A stretch of 64,000 nt of DNA from Escherichia phage vB_Eco_BCPEco_001, in the sequence record PV295200.1; one strand, given 5' to 3'. The notes beneath the pieces were generated by a model. It had not been told where the DNA came from, did not search any database, and saw only the letters and a list, made by a program, of their open reading frames with translations. This document shows, in pieces, positions 2,012 to 62,677 of this stretch. Numbering within the stretch: position 1 is the first letter of the stretch; each line of letters begins with the position of its first letter. Made by a program: the position numbers and the translations under genes.

Positions 2012-2368
2012 ATGTATAGTTCTGAATTTTCATATTTAAAAATTGAAAAAATTTCATACGATTTTATAGATGAAAAGGTTTATTACAGTTTCCATGAACC
2101 ACGTTTTAATAGTGAGGTTGGGTTTATTGTAGTAAAAGACAATTTTATTTTAAAAATATATTCAGCATTAAAGGATTTTCATTACGAAAATATTAACCTA
2201 AAATTTAATAAAGAAAATGTTCGTAATTGCGCGGTAACAATTACAGGAAATAAAGGTACATGTGTTATGCTATCTGATGAAATTAATGATTTGCTAAATG
2301 ATGCAGAAAATATTACTGCACCATCTATTGATGACCAAATTTTTAATGCTTTTATGAATAGAGGTTAA
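2012..2368 (+). CDS. 61.2: 61.2-position protein (118 aa); possibly the anti-DarT factor AdfA reported for T-even phages (name from memory)
   Basis: Position, RBS GAGG. Confidence 0.5.
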   Translation: MYSSEFSYLKIEKISYDFIDEKVYYSFHEPRFNSEVGFIVVKDNFILKIYSALKDFHYENINLKFNKENVRNCAVTITGNKGTCVMLSDEINDLLNDAENITAPSIDDQIFNAFMNRG

Positions 2369-2536: not shown

Positions 2537-3565
2537 ATGTCATCAATACCTTGGATTGATAATGAGTTTGCGTATCGTGCATTAGCTCATTTACCTAAAT
2601 TCACACAAGTAAATAATAGTTCAACTTTTAAATTGCGGTTTAGATGCCCTGTTTGTGGAGATTCAAAAACCGACCAGAATAAAGCTCGTGGATGGTATTA
2701 TGGTGATAATAATGAAGGAAATATTCATTGTTATAACTGTAACTATCATGCACCAATAGGAATATATTTAAAGGAGTTTGAACCTGATTTATATCGTGAG
2801 TATATCTTTGAAATAAGAAAAGAAAAAGGTAAAAGTCGTCCAGTAGAAAAACCTAAAGAACTTCCTAAACATCCTGAGAAGAAAATAATTAAATCTCTTC
2901 CGTCATGTGTTAGATTAGATAAACTGGCGGAAGACCATCCAATTATAAAATACGTAAAAGCTCGTTGTATTCCAAAGGATAAATGGAAATATCTTTGGTT
3001 TACAACTGAATGGCCTAAATTAGTTAATAGCATAGCACCGGGAACATACAAAAAGGAAATTTCTGAGCCTCGTCTTGTTATTCCAATTTATAATGCTAAT
3101 GGAAAAGCTGAGTCTTTTCAAGGACGTGCATTAAAGAAAGATGCTCCTCAAAAATATATCACCATTAAAGCTTATCCTGAGGCAACAAAAATATATGGAG
3201 TCGAACGAGTTAAAGATGGCGATGTATATGTTCTAGAAGGACCTATAGATTCACTTTTTATTGAAAATGGTATAGCTATTACGGGTGGTCAATTAGACCT
3301 AGAAATTGTTCCATTTAAAGATAGACGCGTGTGGGTTTTAGATAATGAACCTCGTCACCCTGACACTATCAAGCGAATGACTAAATTAGTTGATGCAGGA
3401 GAAAGGGTTATGTTTTGGGATAAATCTCCCTGGAAATCAAAAGATGTTAATGATATGATTAGAAAGGAAGGTGCAACCCCTGAACAAATTATGGAATATA
3501 TGAAAAATAATATTGCCCAGGGGTTAATGGCTAAAATGCGGTTATCTAAATATGCCAAGATTTAA
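2537..3565 (+). CDS. 61: DNA primase gp61
   Basis: 342 aa as T4 gp61; Zn-ribbon CPVCGDS...CYNC; TOPRIM-like core. Confidence 0.93.
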   Translation: MSSIPWIDNEFAYRALAHLPKFTQVNNSSTFKLRFRCPVCGDSKTDQNKARGWYYGDNNEGNIHCYNCNYHAPIGIYLKEFEPDLYREYIFEIRKEKGKSRPVEKPKELPKHPEKKIIKSLPSCVRLDKLAEDHPIIKYVKARCIPKDKWKYLWFTTEWPKLVNSIAPGTYKKEISEPRLVIPIYNANGKAESFQGRALKKDAPQKYITIKAYPEATKIYGVERVKDGDVYVLEGPIDSLFIENGIAITGGQLDLEIVPFKDRRVWVLDNEPRHPDTIKRMTKLVDAGERVMFWDKSPWKSKDVNDMIRKEGATPEQIMEYMKNNIAQGLMAKMRLSKYAKI

Positions 3566-3762
3566 ATTAACCCAACTAAAGCAAATGCTAGATCTACGAA
3601 TGTATCAAGAGTAACTACTGGAATATTAACACCATGCGCAATTGCAATTGGTGATAAAATAAAGTTCCAGAGTAAAATTCCTACCATAGCAGAAATAGTA
3701 AAAGCTATACGTTTCTTATTACCTTTGATGGCATTAACAAGTGCCATTAATTTTTGTGCCAT
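3562..3762 (-). CDS. Hypothetical small membrane protein (66 aa, about 2 TM helices), convergent to gene 61
   Basis: Minus-strand ORF with strong SD AAGGAGG 4 nt before ATG; stop overlaps gene 61 stop; extended -10-like TGTGATAAT upstream on minus strand. Confidence 0.4.
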   Translation of the reverse strand: MAQKLMALVNAIKGNKKRIAFTISAMVGILLWNFILSPIAIAHGVNIPVVTLDTFVDLAFALVGLI

Positions 3763-3805
3763 ATGTCCTCCTTTAAATTAATATTATCACAAATTTCATA
3801 AATTT

Positions 3806-3838
3806 GTTTACTTTCTCAGCTTGTTATGGTATTATAAA
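3806..3838 (+). promoter_or_regulatory. T4-type early promoter upstream of 186-aa ORF
   Basis: GTTTAC ... TGGTATTATAAAAT. Confidence 0.65.
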
Positions 3839-3860
3839 ATAAATTGCTGAGGATGATATA

Positions 3861-5199
<1,339 letters not shown>

Positions 5200-21895: not shown

Positions 21896-22225
21896 ATGAT
21901 TTATTGTATGAATATCGGTGACACCGACATAAAAGAAATTTCTCTACATGGTAATCATTACGTTAATATTGTGTACTGCAATAAATTCGAGTTTGGGCAT
22001 GAAAAACTTGGAGTTCTTTACTGCAATGATGTTATAGTCATGGACAAAAAGAATCTCGATGAACTTGATCGTAATTCTTTAGATGAAAATGATCGAATTT
22101 ACTATGGTACTCTTAAAGTGTATAACGCTTATCTTAGTGGTAAAAAGGAAAGTTTAAATGCAGAAAACGAATCCGGGGTTACAGAGACTATTTCAGATTC
22201 CGACATTTACCCTATCGAACAGTGA
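21896..22225 (+). CDS. Hypothetical protein (109 aa), 3' end overlaps denB out of frame
   Basis: ORF with RBS AAGG. Confidence 0.35.
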   Translation: MIYCMNIGDTDIKEISLHGNHYVNIVYCNKFEFGHEKLGVLYCNDVIVMDKKNLDELDRNSLDENDRIYYGTLKVYNAYLSGKKESLNAENESGVTETISDSDIYPIEQ

Positions 22226-22715
22226 CTTGACTAGTGAAATGAAGGTCAAAATTGTTGATACTGCAAGATACTCTTTAAAACAAAACCCAAATCAGGATAA
22301 GGCAGAAGTTATCGAAAGATGCCGTATCGCTGTGTACGCAGAGTTTTTTGTAGCAGATTGGATGAGCGGGTATGTTAACAAAGGTCAAGAAGATGTCGAT
22401 GATCCGTACACATATGCATGGGATGTATTGGCGCATCCAAGATACTGCGGGCTTCGTGTAGAAGTTAAGACACATCAAACTGACTCACGTTGGATTTCGG
22501 TGACAACAGGATGCAGCGGAGAGTATCCATATGGTTCTGGAATAAATCTAGGGCCCATTCTAAATCATCAAGTCGCTGACTGTATAATTATATTCAACAC
22601 TAAAGAAATTCATCCAGGTGTCATCCAATACACTCCGAAGTTCATCGGTGATAGAGAAGACCTTCGTAAGGTTGTAAGAAAAAGCAACTACAGCGGATGG
22701 TATCTTTCCATTTAA
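22158..22715 (+). CDS. denB: Endonuclease IV (DenB), cytosine-DNA specific
   Basis: 185 aa; position after rIIB as in T4. Confidence 0.6.
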   Translation: MQKTNPGLQRLFQIPTFTLSNSDLTSEMKVKIVDTARYSLKQNPNQDKAEVIERCRIAVYAEFFVADWMSGYVNKGQEDVDDPYTYAWDVLAHPRYCGLRVEVKTHQTDSRWISVTTGCSGEYPYGSGINLGPILNHQVADCIIIFNTKEIHPGVIQYTPKFIGDREDLRKVVRKSNYSGWYLSI

Positions 22716-30220: not shown

Positions 30221-31018
30221 TTATACTCTTGGACCATATATTACTCCAACATTTTGCCAAGTTGGAGCAGATCCTATGACAGCATAACCTGCTGCTCCTC
30301 CTGCACCAACCTTTAGAACTTTACCACCATCAGACCAGGCATTTTGTCCATTTCCTCCGGCATCGCCGCCCTGGCCAGAGTGAGCATTTACGAATTGGTA
30401 ACCACCTCCTGGGGCGACGTATGAAGCTGCGCCACCTGAGTAACCACCGCCACCACCTGGGCCAAATGGTCTTCCGCCACCACCACCAATATCTTGCCAG
30501 TGTGCCCCTGAGTGAACACGGTAAGCAATGCCGCCACCACCGCCTCCGCCACCACAGATTACTCCACCATTGTTAATTCTTAATCGTCCACCAATGTCGT
30601 TTTGAATACAATGCCCGCCTTGTTGTCCATTACCATCTCCACCGGAATGAGTCCATCCACCTTGTCCACCTCTACCCCACATATGAGCGCCAATAATATT
30701 TAACTGAACATATTCATTTGGTGTATCTCCGTACATGAAGAATAAAGGAACATCTTTAGAATATGATACTAAATCACCTGTAATATTAAACACTATAGGT
30801 GCATTACCTGCCTCAAAACATCTATCTCGGAACCATTGACCATTGAAGTTATGGTCTGCTCCAAGCGTGTGAATAATTTCTCGTGAGCGACCTGCAAATT
30901 GACTCATCCAGCAAGGAACACCCAATCTTAATTGACCAGCCGCTTGACTCATCCATCGTTGTCCTGTTTCATTTACGGATGAACTACCAATCCAGCCAGG
31001 AACTCCAACTACTGCCAT
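30221..31018 (-). CDS. 38: Long tail fibre adhesin gp38, T2-type with poly-glycine segments
   Basis: 265 aa; GGGGGGGG and GGGGG runs separating variable segments; position distal to gene 37. Confidence 0.85.
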
Positions 31019-31054: not shown

Positions 31055-34000
31055 TTAGAATTTAAAATATTTACTAATTTTGCGAGCAATTTTAGTGAAG
31101 AAAGGCGTTTTTAATTCTTTAATTTCTTCACTCATTTCCTGAATGGCCTTAATTAAAAGAGCATTCACAGCGGAGTTAGAAATTGTCAGAACTTCGTCTG
31201 GTTTATCAAGATTGCCAATTTTCGAAATATTAATCGCTTCTGGTAATATTTCTTGTAAATCCTGTGCGATAATGCCGATCTCATGACCGATAATTTCACG
31301 GTCCTTAAGAGATTTAACTTTATCGTAAGTTTTCACTTTCAGTTTACCAATCAAACTTAACGCATTTCCGGTATAATCTTCTATATTGTCTTTAAGGCGA
31401 CGGTCTGATCGAATATAAACATCGTTAAAGTTTCCGTTGCCACTGGCATCAAAGCTCCCATTTGCATGGAATTGATAATCAGCAGCCTGAACATGAAGAA
31501 TCGCTGTCGCAGTATTATTACTATCACCGGGACAATGAACGTCCAGAGCAGCGATGAAGTTACGCCCCCAATCAACCGCTTTCCAAATAGCATGAGCACT
31601 ATTAACGCTTTGTTGACAGTCAAGCAACAAACCAGCAGGGCGATCTCTCCAATTCACATAAGCACCACCAGAAACTTCACCGCGAATAAGCCCTTGATCT
31701 CCGGCATAAGGAACACGCTCTCCCACTTTAATCATTGCACCCTGGAAGTGATGACTAAATGAACCCCCATGATTATTTCGTATATGTAAAATACCCTCAT
31801 CTGTAGCCCAGATAACAGCCTTTTCTGCATCGCTGCTATCTCTAAACCAGATATGTCGTGCACCAGTTGAGTTTTTGATGGTTATTCCGCTAGGTCCATG
31901 CGCAGTAAAATCGCCAGCAACATCAAACATCAAACTGTTATCTGTCCTGCGTTCCGTATAGAAGTGATAACCTTTTGAATCGCCGACTTCCAATACTGCC
32001 GCGCGACCAACTTCTGAATTTCCCCAATTGTTGATAGAGAATCGTTCAGAGCTATTATTCATCTGATTTAGGTATAATGTACCATCAGTGAATGTTTCGC
32101 CAAAGAAACGAGTTTTAATTGCACCTGTCGCTAAAGTACGTTCAGTGGAAAAATGGGCGCCTTGACTATCTTCTAACTGGATGATGTTATCGCGCGCATT
32201 ATTACTATCACCCCAATGGTTAAATTTAAAATAATCTCGTGATCCTAAACGTCCGGCATCAAAAGTCATCAAGCCTTTTATATTAATATCACCACCAAAA
32301 AATGCGGTGAGAGAATCGCGTTTTAATTTTAAAACGTTAGCACCACTAGCACCACCCAAAGTAACATCACCAGTTCTTAATTCATAACGGAAAGGTCTAT
32401 TTGTATTAAAGTTTCCATCTTGATCATCTTCGTCGGTGGAAAGAATATAAAGACTCTCTCCATCATTACGTAAAATTGTACCAAATTTTCCGCCATACAT
32501 ACGGAATGCATTCAATGAGCGGAATTTAACTTCTGTTTTAAATGTGGTAGTGTTATTAAGGTTAACAGTAGAGTTAAAATTGGTAGGAGCACCGAAGTTA
32601 ACAGCACCATTAAAATCTTGTTGAGCTGTCCATGTGTGGCGACCATCTTCAAGAACAACACGGCGGACTGTGCAAGTTCTATTTCCAGAATTACCGAACA
32701 CACGAACGACAAAATAACGGTAGTTTGTCTGGGATACAGTACCGCGCCAAACCTGAACAGTACGCCCTGTGCCAGTGTGTTCGCTAGGACCAACGGAAAA
32801 CATAACCAAGTTTCCGTCAATCGTCCCCCAATCCATATTTGCTGGCATATTCTTTATTTTGTTCAAAGGAACACTAAACATACTACCAGGAACAAAATCA
32901 AATGTTTGCCAATCTAACTCCGCTAATTGAGCTTTAATACCACCCATACCCAAAGTAATTGGAAGAGAATAAGATGTATATACTTCGTTCCATGCACCCC
33001 ACGCACCACCAGTATATGCACGCTCAAAAATACGATCGCGAGTAGTTGCACCCGTTCCGGCAGTAGTAAATTTTTGGAAAATAGCACCACCAGAAGCACG
33101 CTGTTTAACTTCCAGCAAACCAACAATAACGGCTGGTAAACCTTCACCAGTAGGACAGTTAATAACGGCATCAGTGCCTAAAATGTTATATAACCCAGGA
33201 GTTTTAAAATCATTCAGATCTCCATCATAGAAAGTCGCTGGTGTGCCATGACCAACCTGCTTCCATTCCTCCCACTTAGGTGCACTAGCATCCCATGCAG
33301 CAGCGAGACAACGAGTATAAACCATACCCATGCGGGTAGTATAACGCTGCGTTCTTGCGTATAAACCACCTTCAAATATTTCTAAAAATCCTTGTGCGGC
33401 TGATCCTTCTTCTGGATAATGGCGATCAAATGATGCGATTGCGCTTGAACTGTTTCTCCATAAGCCACAATGTTCTAATTCTCCCAAGCTATCAAGGTCA
33501 ATCGTTTGTGAAAGTGGACGAGTTGACGCTTGAACATTACGCCACACACCCCATGGACCATCGACGCCATTCCATTTAGCAGATAAGGAACGAATATAGA
33601 CGTTACCAGATCTTACAGTATAACGCTGAGTGCCAGCAAATTGGCCGGCCACAAATACTTCTAGTACACCTACGGCATTTTCTTCTGGGAATTTATTTGC
33701 TGGTTGCGCATTTGTTGAAGTAGATTTCGACCAAACACCAAGATATTCTTCAATGGGCCCATACGTATCTAAATTAGCATCAGTAGGTAATTCGCCATTA
33801 TTTTTTATAAATGTTGTGCTATTGACATTTATGTCAGATGGAGTTAGCGTGATATCTTTTGACCCATCAAAAGATATACCATTAATTTTCCTAGGTGTTT
33901 GCAATTTAGTAGCTGTGCTAGAATTTCCAATTAAAGTTCCAGTTATATTTTCTGTAACCTCTAAAGACCCATTTATAGTTCCTCCATATTTTAAACCTAA

Positions 34001-34147
34001 TTCTATAACACTACCTGAGTCATCTTTTGTGAAAATTGTTTTATCTTTTAAGTTTATAGCCAATTCACCTTCGGCTAATACTGAAGCAGCAGGACGTTGA
34101 CCTGCGGTTTTGCTTCTTTTAAATTGTATTTGTTTTAAAGTAGCCAT
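31055..34147 (-). CDS. 37: Long tail fibre distal subunit gp37 with C-terminal intramolecular chaperone domain
   Basis: 1030 aa; C-terminal [10 protein letters not shown]... autoproteolytic chaperone motif. Confidence 0.9.
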
Positions 34148-60274: not shown

Positions 60275-60393
60275 TTATGTTGACGAGGTTTATGGTTATC
60301 CTGTCGGTAAATATTCAAAACCTAAGTACCCCTTGAGGGCTTGCGCAGGCAATGCCAATAAGTCCTGCATTTTCATTTAAAAGAGAATTTATA

Positions 60394-60570
60394 ATGGCAA
60401 AACAAGCTAAAGCAAAGAAAGCAGTTGAAAAGAAAGTTGGTGATTCTAAACGCGCTGGTTACAAGCGTGGGTCTAACTCTCGTATCAATCAAACTGTTGA
60501 GAAGATCATGCGCCGAGCACGTGCGGTTCTTCGAGATGATGCTTCTCGTTTTGGTAAGCAGAAAGCATAA
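60394..60570 (+). CDS. Small basic protein (58 aa)
   Basis: Lys/Arg-rich; ATG 60394. Confidence 0.45.
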   Translation: MAKQAKAKKAVEKKVGDSKRAGYKRGSNSRINQTVEKIMRRARAVLRDDASRFGKQKA

Positions 60571-60575
60571 GTTGA

Positions 60576-60599
60576 GGACTCCTTCGGGAGTCCTTTTTT
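60576..60599 (+). terminator. Intrinsic terminator with UUCG tetraloop (exact copy of 6116-6139)
   Basis: GGACTCC-TTCG-GGAGTCC then TTTTTT. Confidence 0.7.
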
Positions 60600-60623
60600 A
60601 TTTTCCAAAGATTGCACAAAGTT

Positions 60624-60657
60624 GTTTACAGTACGATTTCTTTGTGATAGTATTATC
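60624..60657 (+). promoter_or_regulatory. T4-type early promoter for 30.x block
   Basis: GTTTAC ... TGTGATAGTATTAT. Confidence 0.6.
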
Positions 60658-60705
60658 TTATACAAACAAAAGAAAAGGGCTTCGGCCCCTATTGAGGAAA
60701 ATGTT

Positions 60706-60993
60706 ATGTTTATGACTACTTATTTTGATACCCGCAAAAATTTCTGTGAAGTGGTTTTCTCAAAGGCACCTAAAGACCTTCCTGCACATTTGCAACCTAC
60801 TAGCGAATCGATTAAAAACTACGTTGATGTGGTTTGTCCTTTAGAGTTTCGTACTGTAAATGGGCGCGATACTTTAGCTATCACTAAACTCAATCGCGAA
60901 ATTGACATTGACCCTTTAATTGCGCGCGAAATTAATAGTTCTGATATTAATGGCGGTAACGTTAAATCGCACGGTTTTCAGATGAGGTTCTAA
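60706..60993 (+). CDS. Hypothetical protein (95 aa)
   Basis: RBS GAGGA; after promoter and UUCG hairpin. Confidence 0.5.
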   Translation: MFMTTYFDTRKNFCEVVFSKAPKDLPAHLQPTSESIKNYVDVVCPLEFRTVNGRDTLAITKLNREIDIDPLIAREINSSDINGGNVKSHGFQMRF

Positions 60994-61190
60994 TGAAATT
61001 CTTTTTAGGTCAAACTGTTGAATTAAAGGGAGTTGGTATACCTGGATTAATTTCTAAGGTTCTACCTCCATTTAAATGGAGTGGTATTCAAATAAAAGAG
61101 GCTTATATTGTTTCCTGGGTAGATGGAAATGAAGACCTTCGTATGGGTGATGAATTATCTCCTATTTACGGATTAAAGGAATTAGTATGA
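60993..61190 (+). CDS. Hypothetical protein (65 aa)
   Basis: ORF, coupled. Confidence 0.45.
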   Translation: MKFFLGQTVELKGVGIPGLISKVLPPFKWSGIQIKEAYIVSWVDGNEDLRMGDELSPIYGLKELV

Positions 61191-61393
61191 ATATAATTAA
61201 TAAGATTTTTGGAATTCAGTACATTAAGGTTACATATAAAGTAACAGATAAAAATCCGTATACCGATGAACACGAAGAACCACAAGTTAAGTCTATTATA
61301 TTAGAAAAAGGCAGTGACTGGCCAGTTGAATTTCGTCTTCCTTGCTATGGTCATTGGGCTGATGTTGAAATTATAAGCATTGAAAATGTCTGA
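61187..61393 (+). CDS. Hypothetical protein (68 aa)
   Basis: ORF, coupled. Confidence 0.45.
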   Translation: MNIINKIFGIQYIKVTYKVTDKNPYTDEHEEPQVKSIILEKGSDWPVEFRLPCYGHWADVEIISIENV

Positions 61394-61844
61394 GTTAGAG
61401 ATTAGAAGCAATTTTAGGTGGCCATCATGCGCATTAAGTAATTTCGCCCATTGGCCTTTCGTCATGGATGGTATTCAATTTGGAGGTCTCGAAGGATTCC
61501 TCCAAGGATGTAAGGTGAAAAATGTTGAACAACAACGTCGTATATTTGGGTTATCCGGGCTTGCCGCCCAACAAGCTGGAAGGTCTTATGCTAGAGCTCA
61601 GGACCGTGGGACCCTCTTCTGGCTTGGAGTTCCGTTTTCAAGATACTCCCCGGCGTGGAAAGAATTATACACAAATGCATATTTTGAAGCAGCGATCCAA
61701 AACAAGGGCTTTCGTGATGCATTACAAGCCTCGAAAGGAAAAGTTTTGAAGCATAGCATGGCTAGTGGTCTAACAAAAGATGATACAATACTAACCGAAG
61801 CTGAATTTATTGATGTGTTAAACCTATTAAGAGACTCTCTATGA
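61380..61844 (+). CDS. NADAR/YbiA-like protein candidate (154 aa), GC-rich
   Basis: Motif LSNFAHWPFVMDGIQFGGLEGFLQGCK resembling NADAR; local GC about 45-50 percent versus about 35 percent around it. Confidence 0.5.
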   Translation: MKMSELEIRSNFRWPSCALSNFAHWPFVMDGIQFGGLEGFLQGCKVKNVEQQRRIFGLSGLAAQQAGRSYARAQDRGTLFWLGVPFSRYSPAWKELYTNAYFEAAIQNKGFRDALQASKGKVLKHSMASGLTKDDTILTEAEFIDVLNLLRDSL

Positions 61845-62677
61845 AGCCTACTATTTTAACTGATATTGATGGAGTATGTTTAAGCTGGCAATCAGGCCTT
61901 CCTTATTTTGCTCAGAAATATAATCTTCCGTTAGAACATATTTTAAAAATGATCCAAGATGAAAAATTTATTTCACCTGGTAAACTCTTTAATTGTGATG
62001 AAGAACTTGGCGTTAAGCTAATTGAAAAATACAATCGATCAGATTTTATTCGTTACTTGTCTCCATATAAAGATGCTCTGTGTGTAATTAACAAATTAAA
62101 AGAAGATTATAATTTTGTAGCTGTTACAGCATTGGGTGATTCTATTGACGCTCTGTTGAATCGTCAATTTAATTTGAATGCTCTTTTTCCTGGTGCCTTC
62201 TCAGAAGTAATGATGTGTGGTCATGATTCTTCAAAAGAAGAGTTGTTCAAAAAGGCAAAAGAGAAATATAACGTAATTTGTTATATTGACGATCTCGCTC
62301 ACCACTGCGATCATGCGAGTGAAATATTACGTGTTCCTGTGTATTGGATGGCTCGAGGGGAACGTGACAGTATTCCAAAAACTGCTCAGCGAGTTTATAC
62401 ATGGAATGATGTAGAAAATAAGCTTTTTTCACCGAAGGAAAATAAAGAAAGTTTTGATAGTGAAAAAGCTATAAAAGATGCAATCGAGAAGATGATTAAA
62501 AACGATTCTTTTCCTTGGAACACTACCTGGAGAACTCCTGGATTTAATCCTTATAATCTATATCATCCATATCAGACGCATCCGTTTCAGACATGGAACT
62601 ATATTAAACCTGGCGGCATAGAGTATTTGTATAATAGACCTACTTGTGGTGATAATATTTTCCAAGGAGCATTCTAA
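61841..62677 (+). CDS. HAD-superfamily hydrolase-like protein (278 aa)
   Basis: Motif I LTDIDGV and motif IV YIDDLAHHCD. Confidence 0.5.
   Translation: MKPTILTDIDGVCLSWQSGLPYFAQKYNLPLEHILKMIQDEKFISPGKLFNCDEELGVKLIEKYNRSDFIRYLSPYKDALCVINKLKEDYNFVAVTALGDSIDALLNRQFNLNALFPGAFSEVMMCGHDSSKEELFKKAKEKYNVICYIDDLAHHCDHASEILRVPVYWMARGERDSIPKTAQRVYTWNDVENKLFSPKENKESFDSEKAIKDAIEKMIKNDSFPWNTTWRTPGFNPYNLYHPYQTHPFQTWNYIKPGGIEYLYNRPTCGDNIFQGAF

Follow-up and report, generated by a model that had tools for sequence, protein, structure and literature searches.

The window analysed here, a stretch of 64,000 nucleotides from Escherichia phage vB_Eco_BCPEco_001 (PV295200.1), comes from a Tequatrovirus (T4-like) phage, and its genes cd, 31, rIII, the 30.x block, and DNA ligase stand in the order found in slur07 and T4. 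Within the 30.x block lies an ORF on the plus strand (61380–61844), and the 2.1 kb around it are 97–99% identical to hundreds of T4-like phages of Escherichia, Shigella, Salmonella, and Yersinia. The initial annotation had given this ORF 154 residues; the ORF exists, but that count runs from a TTG at 61380 that is merely the earliest start codon downstream of a stop. In T4, slur07, and other relatives, the start is annotated two codons further on, at an ATG that corresponds to 61386 in the window and yields 152 residues. This ATG, rather than the TTG, is most likely the true start, and with it the numbering agrees with the published catalytic residues E36 and K43. The features of the region are as follows.

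60574–60653, plus strand: terminator-like hairpin (60574–60595), then a sigma-70-like promoter match (60625–60653), from a consensus scan
61187–61393, plus strand: gene 30.4, 68 aa, PHROG 2042 (unknown function); its stop and the 30.3 start share 8 nt (ATGTCTGA)
61386–61844, plus strand: coding sequence of gene 30.3/adfN, a predicted NADAR-fold DNA ADP-ribosylglycohydrolase, 152 aa plus stop
61491–61493, plus strand: Glu36 (codon GAA), predicted catalytic glutamate read from the sequence; equals E88 of E. coli C7 DarG1 and E43 of PnNADAR
61512–61514, plus strand: Lys43 (codon AAG), predicted catalytic lysine, read from the sequence
61522–61749, plus strand: ORF 30.3', 75 aa, +1 frame inside 30.3, PHROG 14037, from the T4 annotation
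61752–61754, plus strand: His123 (codon CAT), directly after the last β-strand (120–122) of the structural model
61797–61841, plus strand: C-terminal helix, residues 138–152 (138–151 in the AF2 model), intact
61841–62677, plus strand: gene 30.2, with a HAD-superfamily phosphatase-like domain (residues 1 to ~195) and a C-terminal tail, from motifs and a model

The synteny of 30.4, 30.3, 30.2, 30.1, and ligase is identical to that of T4, and every junction from 30.6 to ligase overlaps or abuts, with the 30.3 stop and the 30.2 start sharing the letters ATGA. The hairpin and the promoter match stand upstream of this overlapping chain (30.6-30.5-30.4-30.3-30.2-30.1-30) and may mark the boundary of a transcription unit. 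T4 genes 30.7 and 30.8 (782 bp) are missing here (window 60277–60706 versus T4 129476–130257), as are 124 bp that T4 carries between rIII and 30.9, and a 30.9-like ORF is followed by the strong terminator-like hairpin and then by 30.6.

The protein is identical to T4 gp30.3 (NP_049816) at 150 of 152 positions (99%), has the same length, keeps E36, K43, and H123, and is encoded at the same place, between 30.4 and 30.2 upstream of ligase and with the same overlaps. The two proteins differ only by Q22H and I125M; both positions are variable in the family consensus, and I125M lies two residues past H123. The protein matches the Pfam family Phage_30_3 (PF08010) with E = 7.7e-70 and 233.5 bits, against a gathering score of 36. 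Proteins that are identical or 99% identical occur in 143 phage records; several records hold a protein that is 100% identical, and in one of these it is labelled 'NADAR domain containing protein'.

The +1-frame ORF 30.3' is unlikely to be a functional overlapping gene: its ATG is ACG in slur07, RB69 has an internal stop, and tblastn found no match to it among divergent phages. It is probably a by-product of locally GC-rich sequence rather than a conserved gene.

NADAR fold and catalytic residues of gp30.3

We searched for NADAR relationships with the single protein, with its family, and with a structural model. The single protein had no match to Pfam NADAR (PF08719) at E ≤ 1, matched no solved NADAR chain when phmmer was run against the PDB sequences, and returned nothing from NCBIfam or PADLOC, the last of which also gave no match for gp30.2. 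We then gathered 104 homologues and aligned the 80 full-length ones. Twelve of these 80 family members match Pfam NADAR directly (best E = 1.5e-7), and when the profile of the 80-sequence alignment was compared with all PDB sequences, the top match was E. coli YbiA (2b3w; E = 0.0056), over the motif SNF...E..Q..K. The AF2 model of gp30.3 (pLDDT 93.5, pTM 0.89) has an α-helical core flanked by small β-sheets, as expected of a NADAR fold, and a Foldseek search with this model placed 2b3w, 8bau, and 8bat as its top three matches, with E > 2 for all others; the alignment to 8bat spans 132 of 219 residues. These results support placing the gp30.3 family in the NADAR superfamily, on the basis of family-level transitivity and predicted structure. 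The assignment leans on these two lines because the single sequence has no direct match, and we did not read the single-sequence nulls as a refutation because the family-level and structural evidence is decisive. The Pfam NADAR search that the initial annotation had named as its check thus came out negative for the single sequence at E ≤ 1, and this outcome was overturned by the 12 matching family members, the profile match to YbiA, and the structure. The N-terminal motif that it had likened to NADAR and YbiA was correctly recognized: LSNFAHWPFVMDGIQFGGLEGFLQGCK occupies residues 17–43, and it is here that the family profile aligns with E. coli YbiA.

Two of the predicted catalytic residues fall within this motif. 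Glu36 is present in 80/80 aligned homologues and in 78/78 genome-derived homologues that have a residue in that column, and Lys43 in at least 90% of the former and 77/78 of the latter. The E. coli C7 NADAR has its counterpart catalytic pair, E88 and K95, in the N-terminal motif, and the substitutions E36A and K43A impair AdfN-T4, the T4 gp30.3 protein, weakening rescue (PMC11825919). At the third position, His123 is invariant in the 80-sequence alignment and present in 79/79 sequences of a second alignment (78/78 of the genome-derived homologues). A histidine here marks phage NADARs of the gp30.3 type, whereas YbiA has Glu and DarG1 has Asp (PMC11543638, PMC11125620). The C-terminal helix is complete. 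The inactive RB69 allele of gene 30.3 is annotated as 414 nt (137 aa); its translation goes out of frame past 'DDTILT', and the frameshifted protein lacks the helix; an RB69-like C-terminal truncation lowers AdfN activity (PMC11825919). Thus, gp30.3 of this phage has the sequence and structural features of the Phage_30_3 clade: a PF08010 match, the third-position His, and a core domain only, with a full C-terminal helix.

Comparison with characterized NADARs sets this clade apart from its relatives. AdfN works like DarG1, for which the NADARs of Geobacter/Trichlorobacter lovleyi (8bat) and E. coli C7 serve as references, but 30.3 does not belong to the DarG1 clade. It has no adjoining DarT1, its neighbours being 30.4 and the HAD-fold gp30.2; it has His123 in place of the catalytic Asp; and it consists of the core domain only, with 152 residues compared to about 190–220 and without the N-terminal extension, the first conserved motif beginning 13 residues from the protein start. 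Identity to YbiA (2b3w) and to the Phytophthora nicotianae NADAR (8bau) is about 18–20%, and both carry Glu (E125 in PnNADAR) where 30.3 has His123, which places 30.3 outside the YbiA family; YbiA, unlike AdfN, serves riboflavin metabolism as a housekeeping enzyme. AdfN-Bas32 and AdfN-Bas60, from T5-like and Vequintavirinae phages, resemble 30.3 in being orphan phage NADARs that counter DarTG1, but they fall into other NADAR clades, go back to independent acquisitions, and need no T-even-specific factors.

Base composition and distribution of gene 30.3

The GC content of 30.3 is 42.7%, compared to 35.3% for the window. The initial annotation had rightly seen an elevation over the surroundings, but its estimate of 45–50% was too high, as 46% is reached only in the central 300 bp. 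Among 98 non-overlapping ORFs (a crude set with a mean of 34.6% and an SD of 3.8), 30.3 ranks second in GC (z = 2.15) and fifth in GC3 (34.6% versus a mean of 24.6%). The sliding-window and codon-usage calculations that had been proposed as a check bore the claim out in part: 3% of equal-length windows are as GC-rich as 30.3, and in a leave-one-out synonymous codon likelihood, 30.3 is the most atypical of the 98 ORFs (z = −3.4). Compared with its local flanks, 30.3 is richer by 6 to 7 GC points in the window, T4, and slur07; the excess is 4 in KVP40, 3 in a Gaprivervirus, and 2 in both Matisse and RB69, and in ZZ1, Phi1, and RSP15 it is close to zero or below. The compositional oddity of 30.3 is therefore real but moderate, and specific to one lineage. 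Taking GC content as proof of recent horizontal transfer would be over-reading, since the excess fades across lineages and the gene occurs throughout the Straboviridae. Horizontal acquisition, which the initial annotation had suggested, is plausible but, with the gene found across this family, would be ancient. The atypical codon usage would fit an acquisition long ago, exchange among T-even lineages, or a compositional constraint.

Two other genes stand out in the same comparisons. The GC-richest gene of the window (47%) encodes a glycine-rich, 265-aa gp38 tail-fibre adhesin of the T2/T6 type (30221–31018, minus strand; Pfam GP38, E = 9e-67). It adjoins a gp37-like long tail fibre (31055–34147, minus strand) with a C-terminal Peptidase_S74 intramolecular chaperone domain, which makes the receptor-binding module one of the T2/T6 rather than the T4 type. 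The second most codon-atypical ORF (22158–22715, plus strand; 41% GC) encodes a DenB-like endonuclease IV (PHROG 1360, E = 7.9e-97).

By tblastn, gp30.3 homologues are found in 1510 phage records, mostly of Straboviridae and from many hosts. Outside the Straboviridae, Ralstonia phage RSP15 (Ackermannviridae) carries a gp30.3-family gene at 3495–4013, in a tRNA gene cluster and not beside ligase. When prokaryotes were scanned at one genome per species, 250 stretches were found that code for relatives 36–43% identical to gp30.3, mostly in gut or rumen Clostridia and Bacteroidales and in CPR and DPANN metagenome-assembled genomes. The GC content of these genome-derived homologues tracks that of their own contigs, from 27% to 67%. 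We surveyed 143 immediate neighbour ORFs at 79 loci and found the neighbours of these His-type NADARs to be heterogeneous and mostly housekeeping, including GroEL (five times), ADP-ribosylglycohydrolase PF03747 (three times), NUDIX (three times), and tRNA synthetases. The 25 families at the top of the Pfam and PADLOC listings for the 143 ORFs did not include DarT, which leaves room for lone occurrences. The clade of His-type NADARs thus seems widely distributed among bacterial and archaeal assemblies, and some of the contigs may be phage DNA binned into metagenome-assembled genomes. Should many of the contigs be chromosomal, the 'phage NADAR' clade would not be confined to phages, a point that matters for the proposal that this clade arose from DarG1.

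Gene 30.2 and the slot of adfA

The initial annotation had also called the neighbouring ORF at 61841–62677 a HAD-like hydrolase, and our analysis agrees. The gp30.2 sequence itself has no Pfam match, but among its homologues 11 match Pfam Hydrolase and 4 match NT5C. An alignment of 68 homologues shows no variation at D8, D10, K132, D150, or D151 and hardly any at T96, and together these residues make up the four HAD motifs (I, DxD; II, S/T; III, K; IV, DD), and the model, confident over residues 1–190 and of low confidence over about 200–278, has the Rossmannoid HAD fold. The protein resembles 5'(3')-deoxyribonucleotidases and ends in a variable tail of ~80 aa; many homologues have merely ~200 aa.

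Encoded in the same translationally coupled chain, gp30.2 would be the leading candidate for a T-even partner of AdfN, in our estimate an improbable one. Were it a partner, it could process the released ADP-ribose or nucleotide product, or stabilise or localise AdfN. The spread of the two genes over phage genera is near-identical, with 30.2 in 1452 and 30.3 in 1510 records and near-equal counts for Klebsiella, Aeromonas, Acinetobacter, and Yersinia phages, and the genes are adjacent in T4, RZ, RB69, and ZZ1 and two genes apart in Matisse. In Phi1, KVP40, and RSP15, 30.3 is present and no 30.2 homologue lies within 3.5 kb, and the text of a preprint on a T4 transposon screen names adfN alone as lost on DarTG1 (bioRxiv 10.1101/2025.11.20.689424). 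An obligatory partnership of gp30.2 with AdfN is therefore not supported, given its absence near 30.3 in these three phages and its not being named as DarTG1-conditional in the preprint.

T4 encodes another anti-DarT1 factor, AdfA, in gene 61.2. Its slot in the window (2012–2368, plus strand) holds only a 118-aa ORF (PHROG 4122), half the length of AdfA, that matches the C-terminal half alone of Pfam AdfA (PF23813; E = 1.1e-7, positions 115–211 of 211) and shares 34% identity with the final 100 aa of T4 gp61.2. With the AdfA homologue reduced to half-length, AdfN is seemingly the sole obvious anti-DarTG1 factor of vB_Eco_BCPEco_001.

Function of AdfN

Published work has established that T4 gp30.3, under the name AdfN, removes guanine ADP-ribose from DNA, and that it is both necessary and sufficient for T-even phages to resist DarTG1 (Johannesman et al. 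2025; Toxins 2024; Schuller et al. 2023). In RB69 × T2 and RB69 × T4 chimeras, DarTG1 resistance mapped to the 3' part of 30.3, and the gene was renamed adfN, its product being the anti-DarT factor NADAR (Johannesman et al., Nat Commun 2025, PMC11825919). Deletion of adfN renders T4 and T2 sensitive to DarTG1, ectopic AdfN rescues RB69, and purified AdfN strips ADP-ribose off DarT1-modified DNA (PMC11825919). The target is the modification made by DarT1 (guanine) and not that made by DarT2 (thymine), and DarTG2 is not countered by AdfN (PMC11825919). Independent work found hydrolysis of G-ADPr by the T4 NADAR in vitro (PMC11125620, PMC12945103) and none of C-ADPr (PMC12945103), and in a T4 transposon screen, insertions in 30.3/adfN were lost specifically on DarTG1 hosts (bioRxiv 10.1101/2025.11.20.689424). 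Unlike DarG1, AdfN-T4 reportedly does not neutralise DarT1 in uninfected E. coli, and it gives only weak help to non-T-even phages (PMC11125620). It is fully effective only during T-even infection, from which its authors infer a further T-even potentiating factor. Simple hydrolysis of the DarG1 kind therefore does not account for the mechanism in full, and a T-even factor seems to be needed.

Applied to the phage studied here, these findings outline the following course. On infection of a host with the toxin-antitoxin defence DarTG1, the toxin DarT1 would ADP-ribosylate guanines of the phage DNA and thereby block replication. AdfN, probably transcribed from the plus strand within the tightly coupled chain from 30.6 to 30 (ligase), would hydrolyse the N-glycosidic bond between guanine and ADP-ribose, with E36, K43, and H123 predicted to position the distal ribose. 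Unmodified DNA would thus be restored and the phage could replicate. In this role AdfN would be an orphan enzyme, antitoxin-like and performing the task of DarG1 with no toxin linked to it.

Other readings of the gene weigh differently against this body of evidence. YbiA is the best PDB match of the family profile and the best Foldseek match of the model, JGI labels several family members 'YbiA (DUF1768 family)', and the adjoining gp30.2 is HAD phosphatase-like, with homologues that some sources name 'FMN phosphatase YigB'; from these associations one might take gp30.3 for a housekeeping N-glycosidase of the YbiA kind, with riboflavin-pathway intermediates or other small-molecule ribosyl compounds as its substrates, and hence for a metabolic auxiliary gene rather than a counter-defence gene. 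We regard this as extremely improbable, given that clear G-ADPr hydrolase activity and a lack of action on riboflavin intermediates have in essence already been reported for T4 gp30.3. It is also very unlikely that the allele in this phage is a non-functional, decaying remnant like that of RB69. Such decay would fit with the two substitutions relative to T4 gp30.3 and with the loss or divergence of nearby accessory genes (30.7 and 30.8 absent, AdfA truncated), but the frame is full-length, the C-terminal helix and catalytic residues are intact, both substituted positions vary within the family, and 143 phage records hold the same or a 99% identical protein. The allele accordingly looks functional.

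We also consider it unlikely that the main substrate is something other than DarT1-modified DNA, such as G-ADPr RNA, what further toxins that target guanine produce, or side products of the phage's own ADP-ribosyltransferases Alt, ModA, or ModB, with DarTG1 resistance being one facet of a broader role. A link to Alt is suggested by alt lying within a few kb of 30.3 in T4, slur07, and ZZ1. Alt and Mod enzymes, however, act on proteins, or on RNA via NAD-caps, and not on guanine bases. For the other candidate substrates, NADARs including the T4 enzyme clear G-ADPr from RNA in vitro (PMC12945103), the AdfN authors themselves propose other toxins as possible targets, and the gp30.3-type clade occurs in ~250 bacterial and archaeal contigs with no obvious DarT neighbour; nevertheless, the sole phenotype demonstrated so far is specific to DarTG1, with no effect on DarTG2 and no C-ADPr hydrolysis (PMC11825919, PMC12945103).

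We therefore conclude, with a probability of about 0.95, that the ORF is adfN (T4 gene 30.3) and encodes a minimal NADAR-fold ADP-ribosylglycohydrolase of 152 residues that counteracts DarTG1. Family identity, fold, catalytic residues, full intact length, and synteny are observations of the present analysis, and the 99% identity together with the intact, full-length C-terminal helix gives high confidence in assigning the published mechanism to the ORF. Enzymatic activity and resistance to DarTG1 were demonstrated in the literature for the 99%-identical protein, and the exact allele is expected to act like that of T4. A NADAR-like reversal of DarT guanine ADP-ribosylation, with a role in counter-defence, is what the initial annotation had put forward, and it is upheld by the identity to AdfN-T4, the retained E36, K43, and H123, and the published experiments. 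The check is of limited value because all of this was published in 2023–2025 for a 99%-identical protein, so that adfN and its function are already known; it shows that an inference made blind from the raw sequence was right, and it amends the start codon and the GC figure. For the T-even phages, AdfN is the main reason that they withstand DarTG1, and it is the first case described of an orphan antitoxin-like enzyme in a lytic phage.
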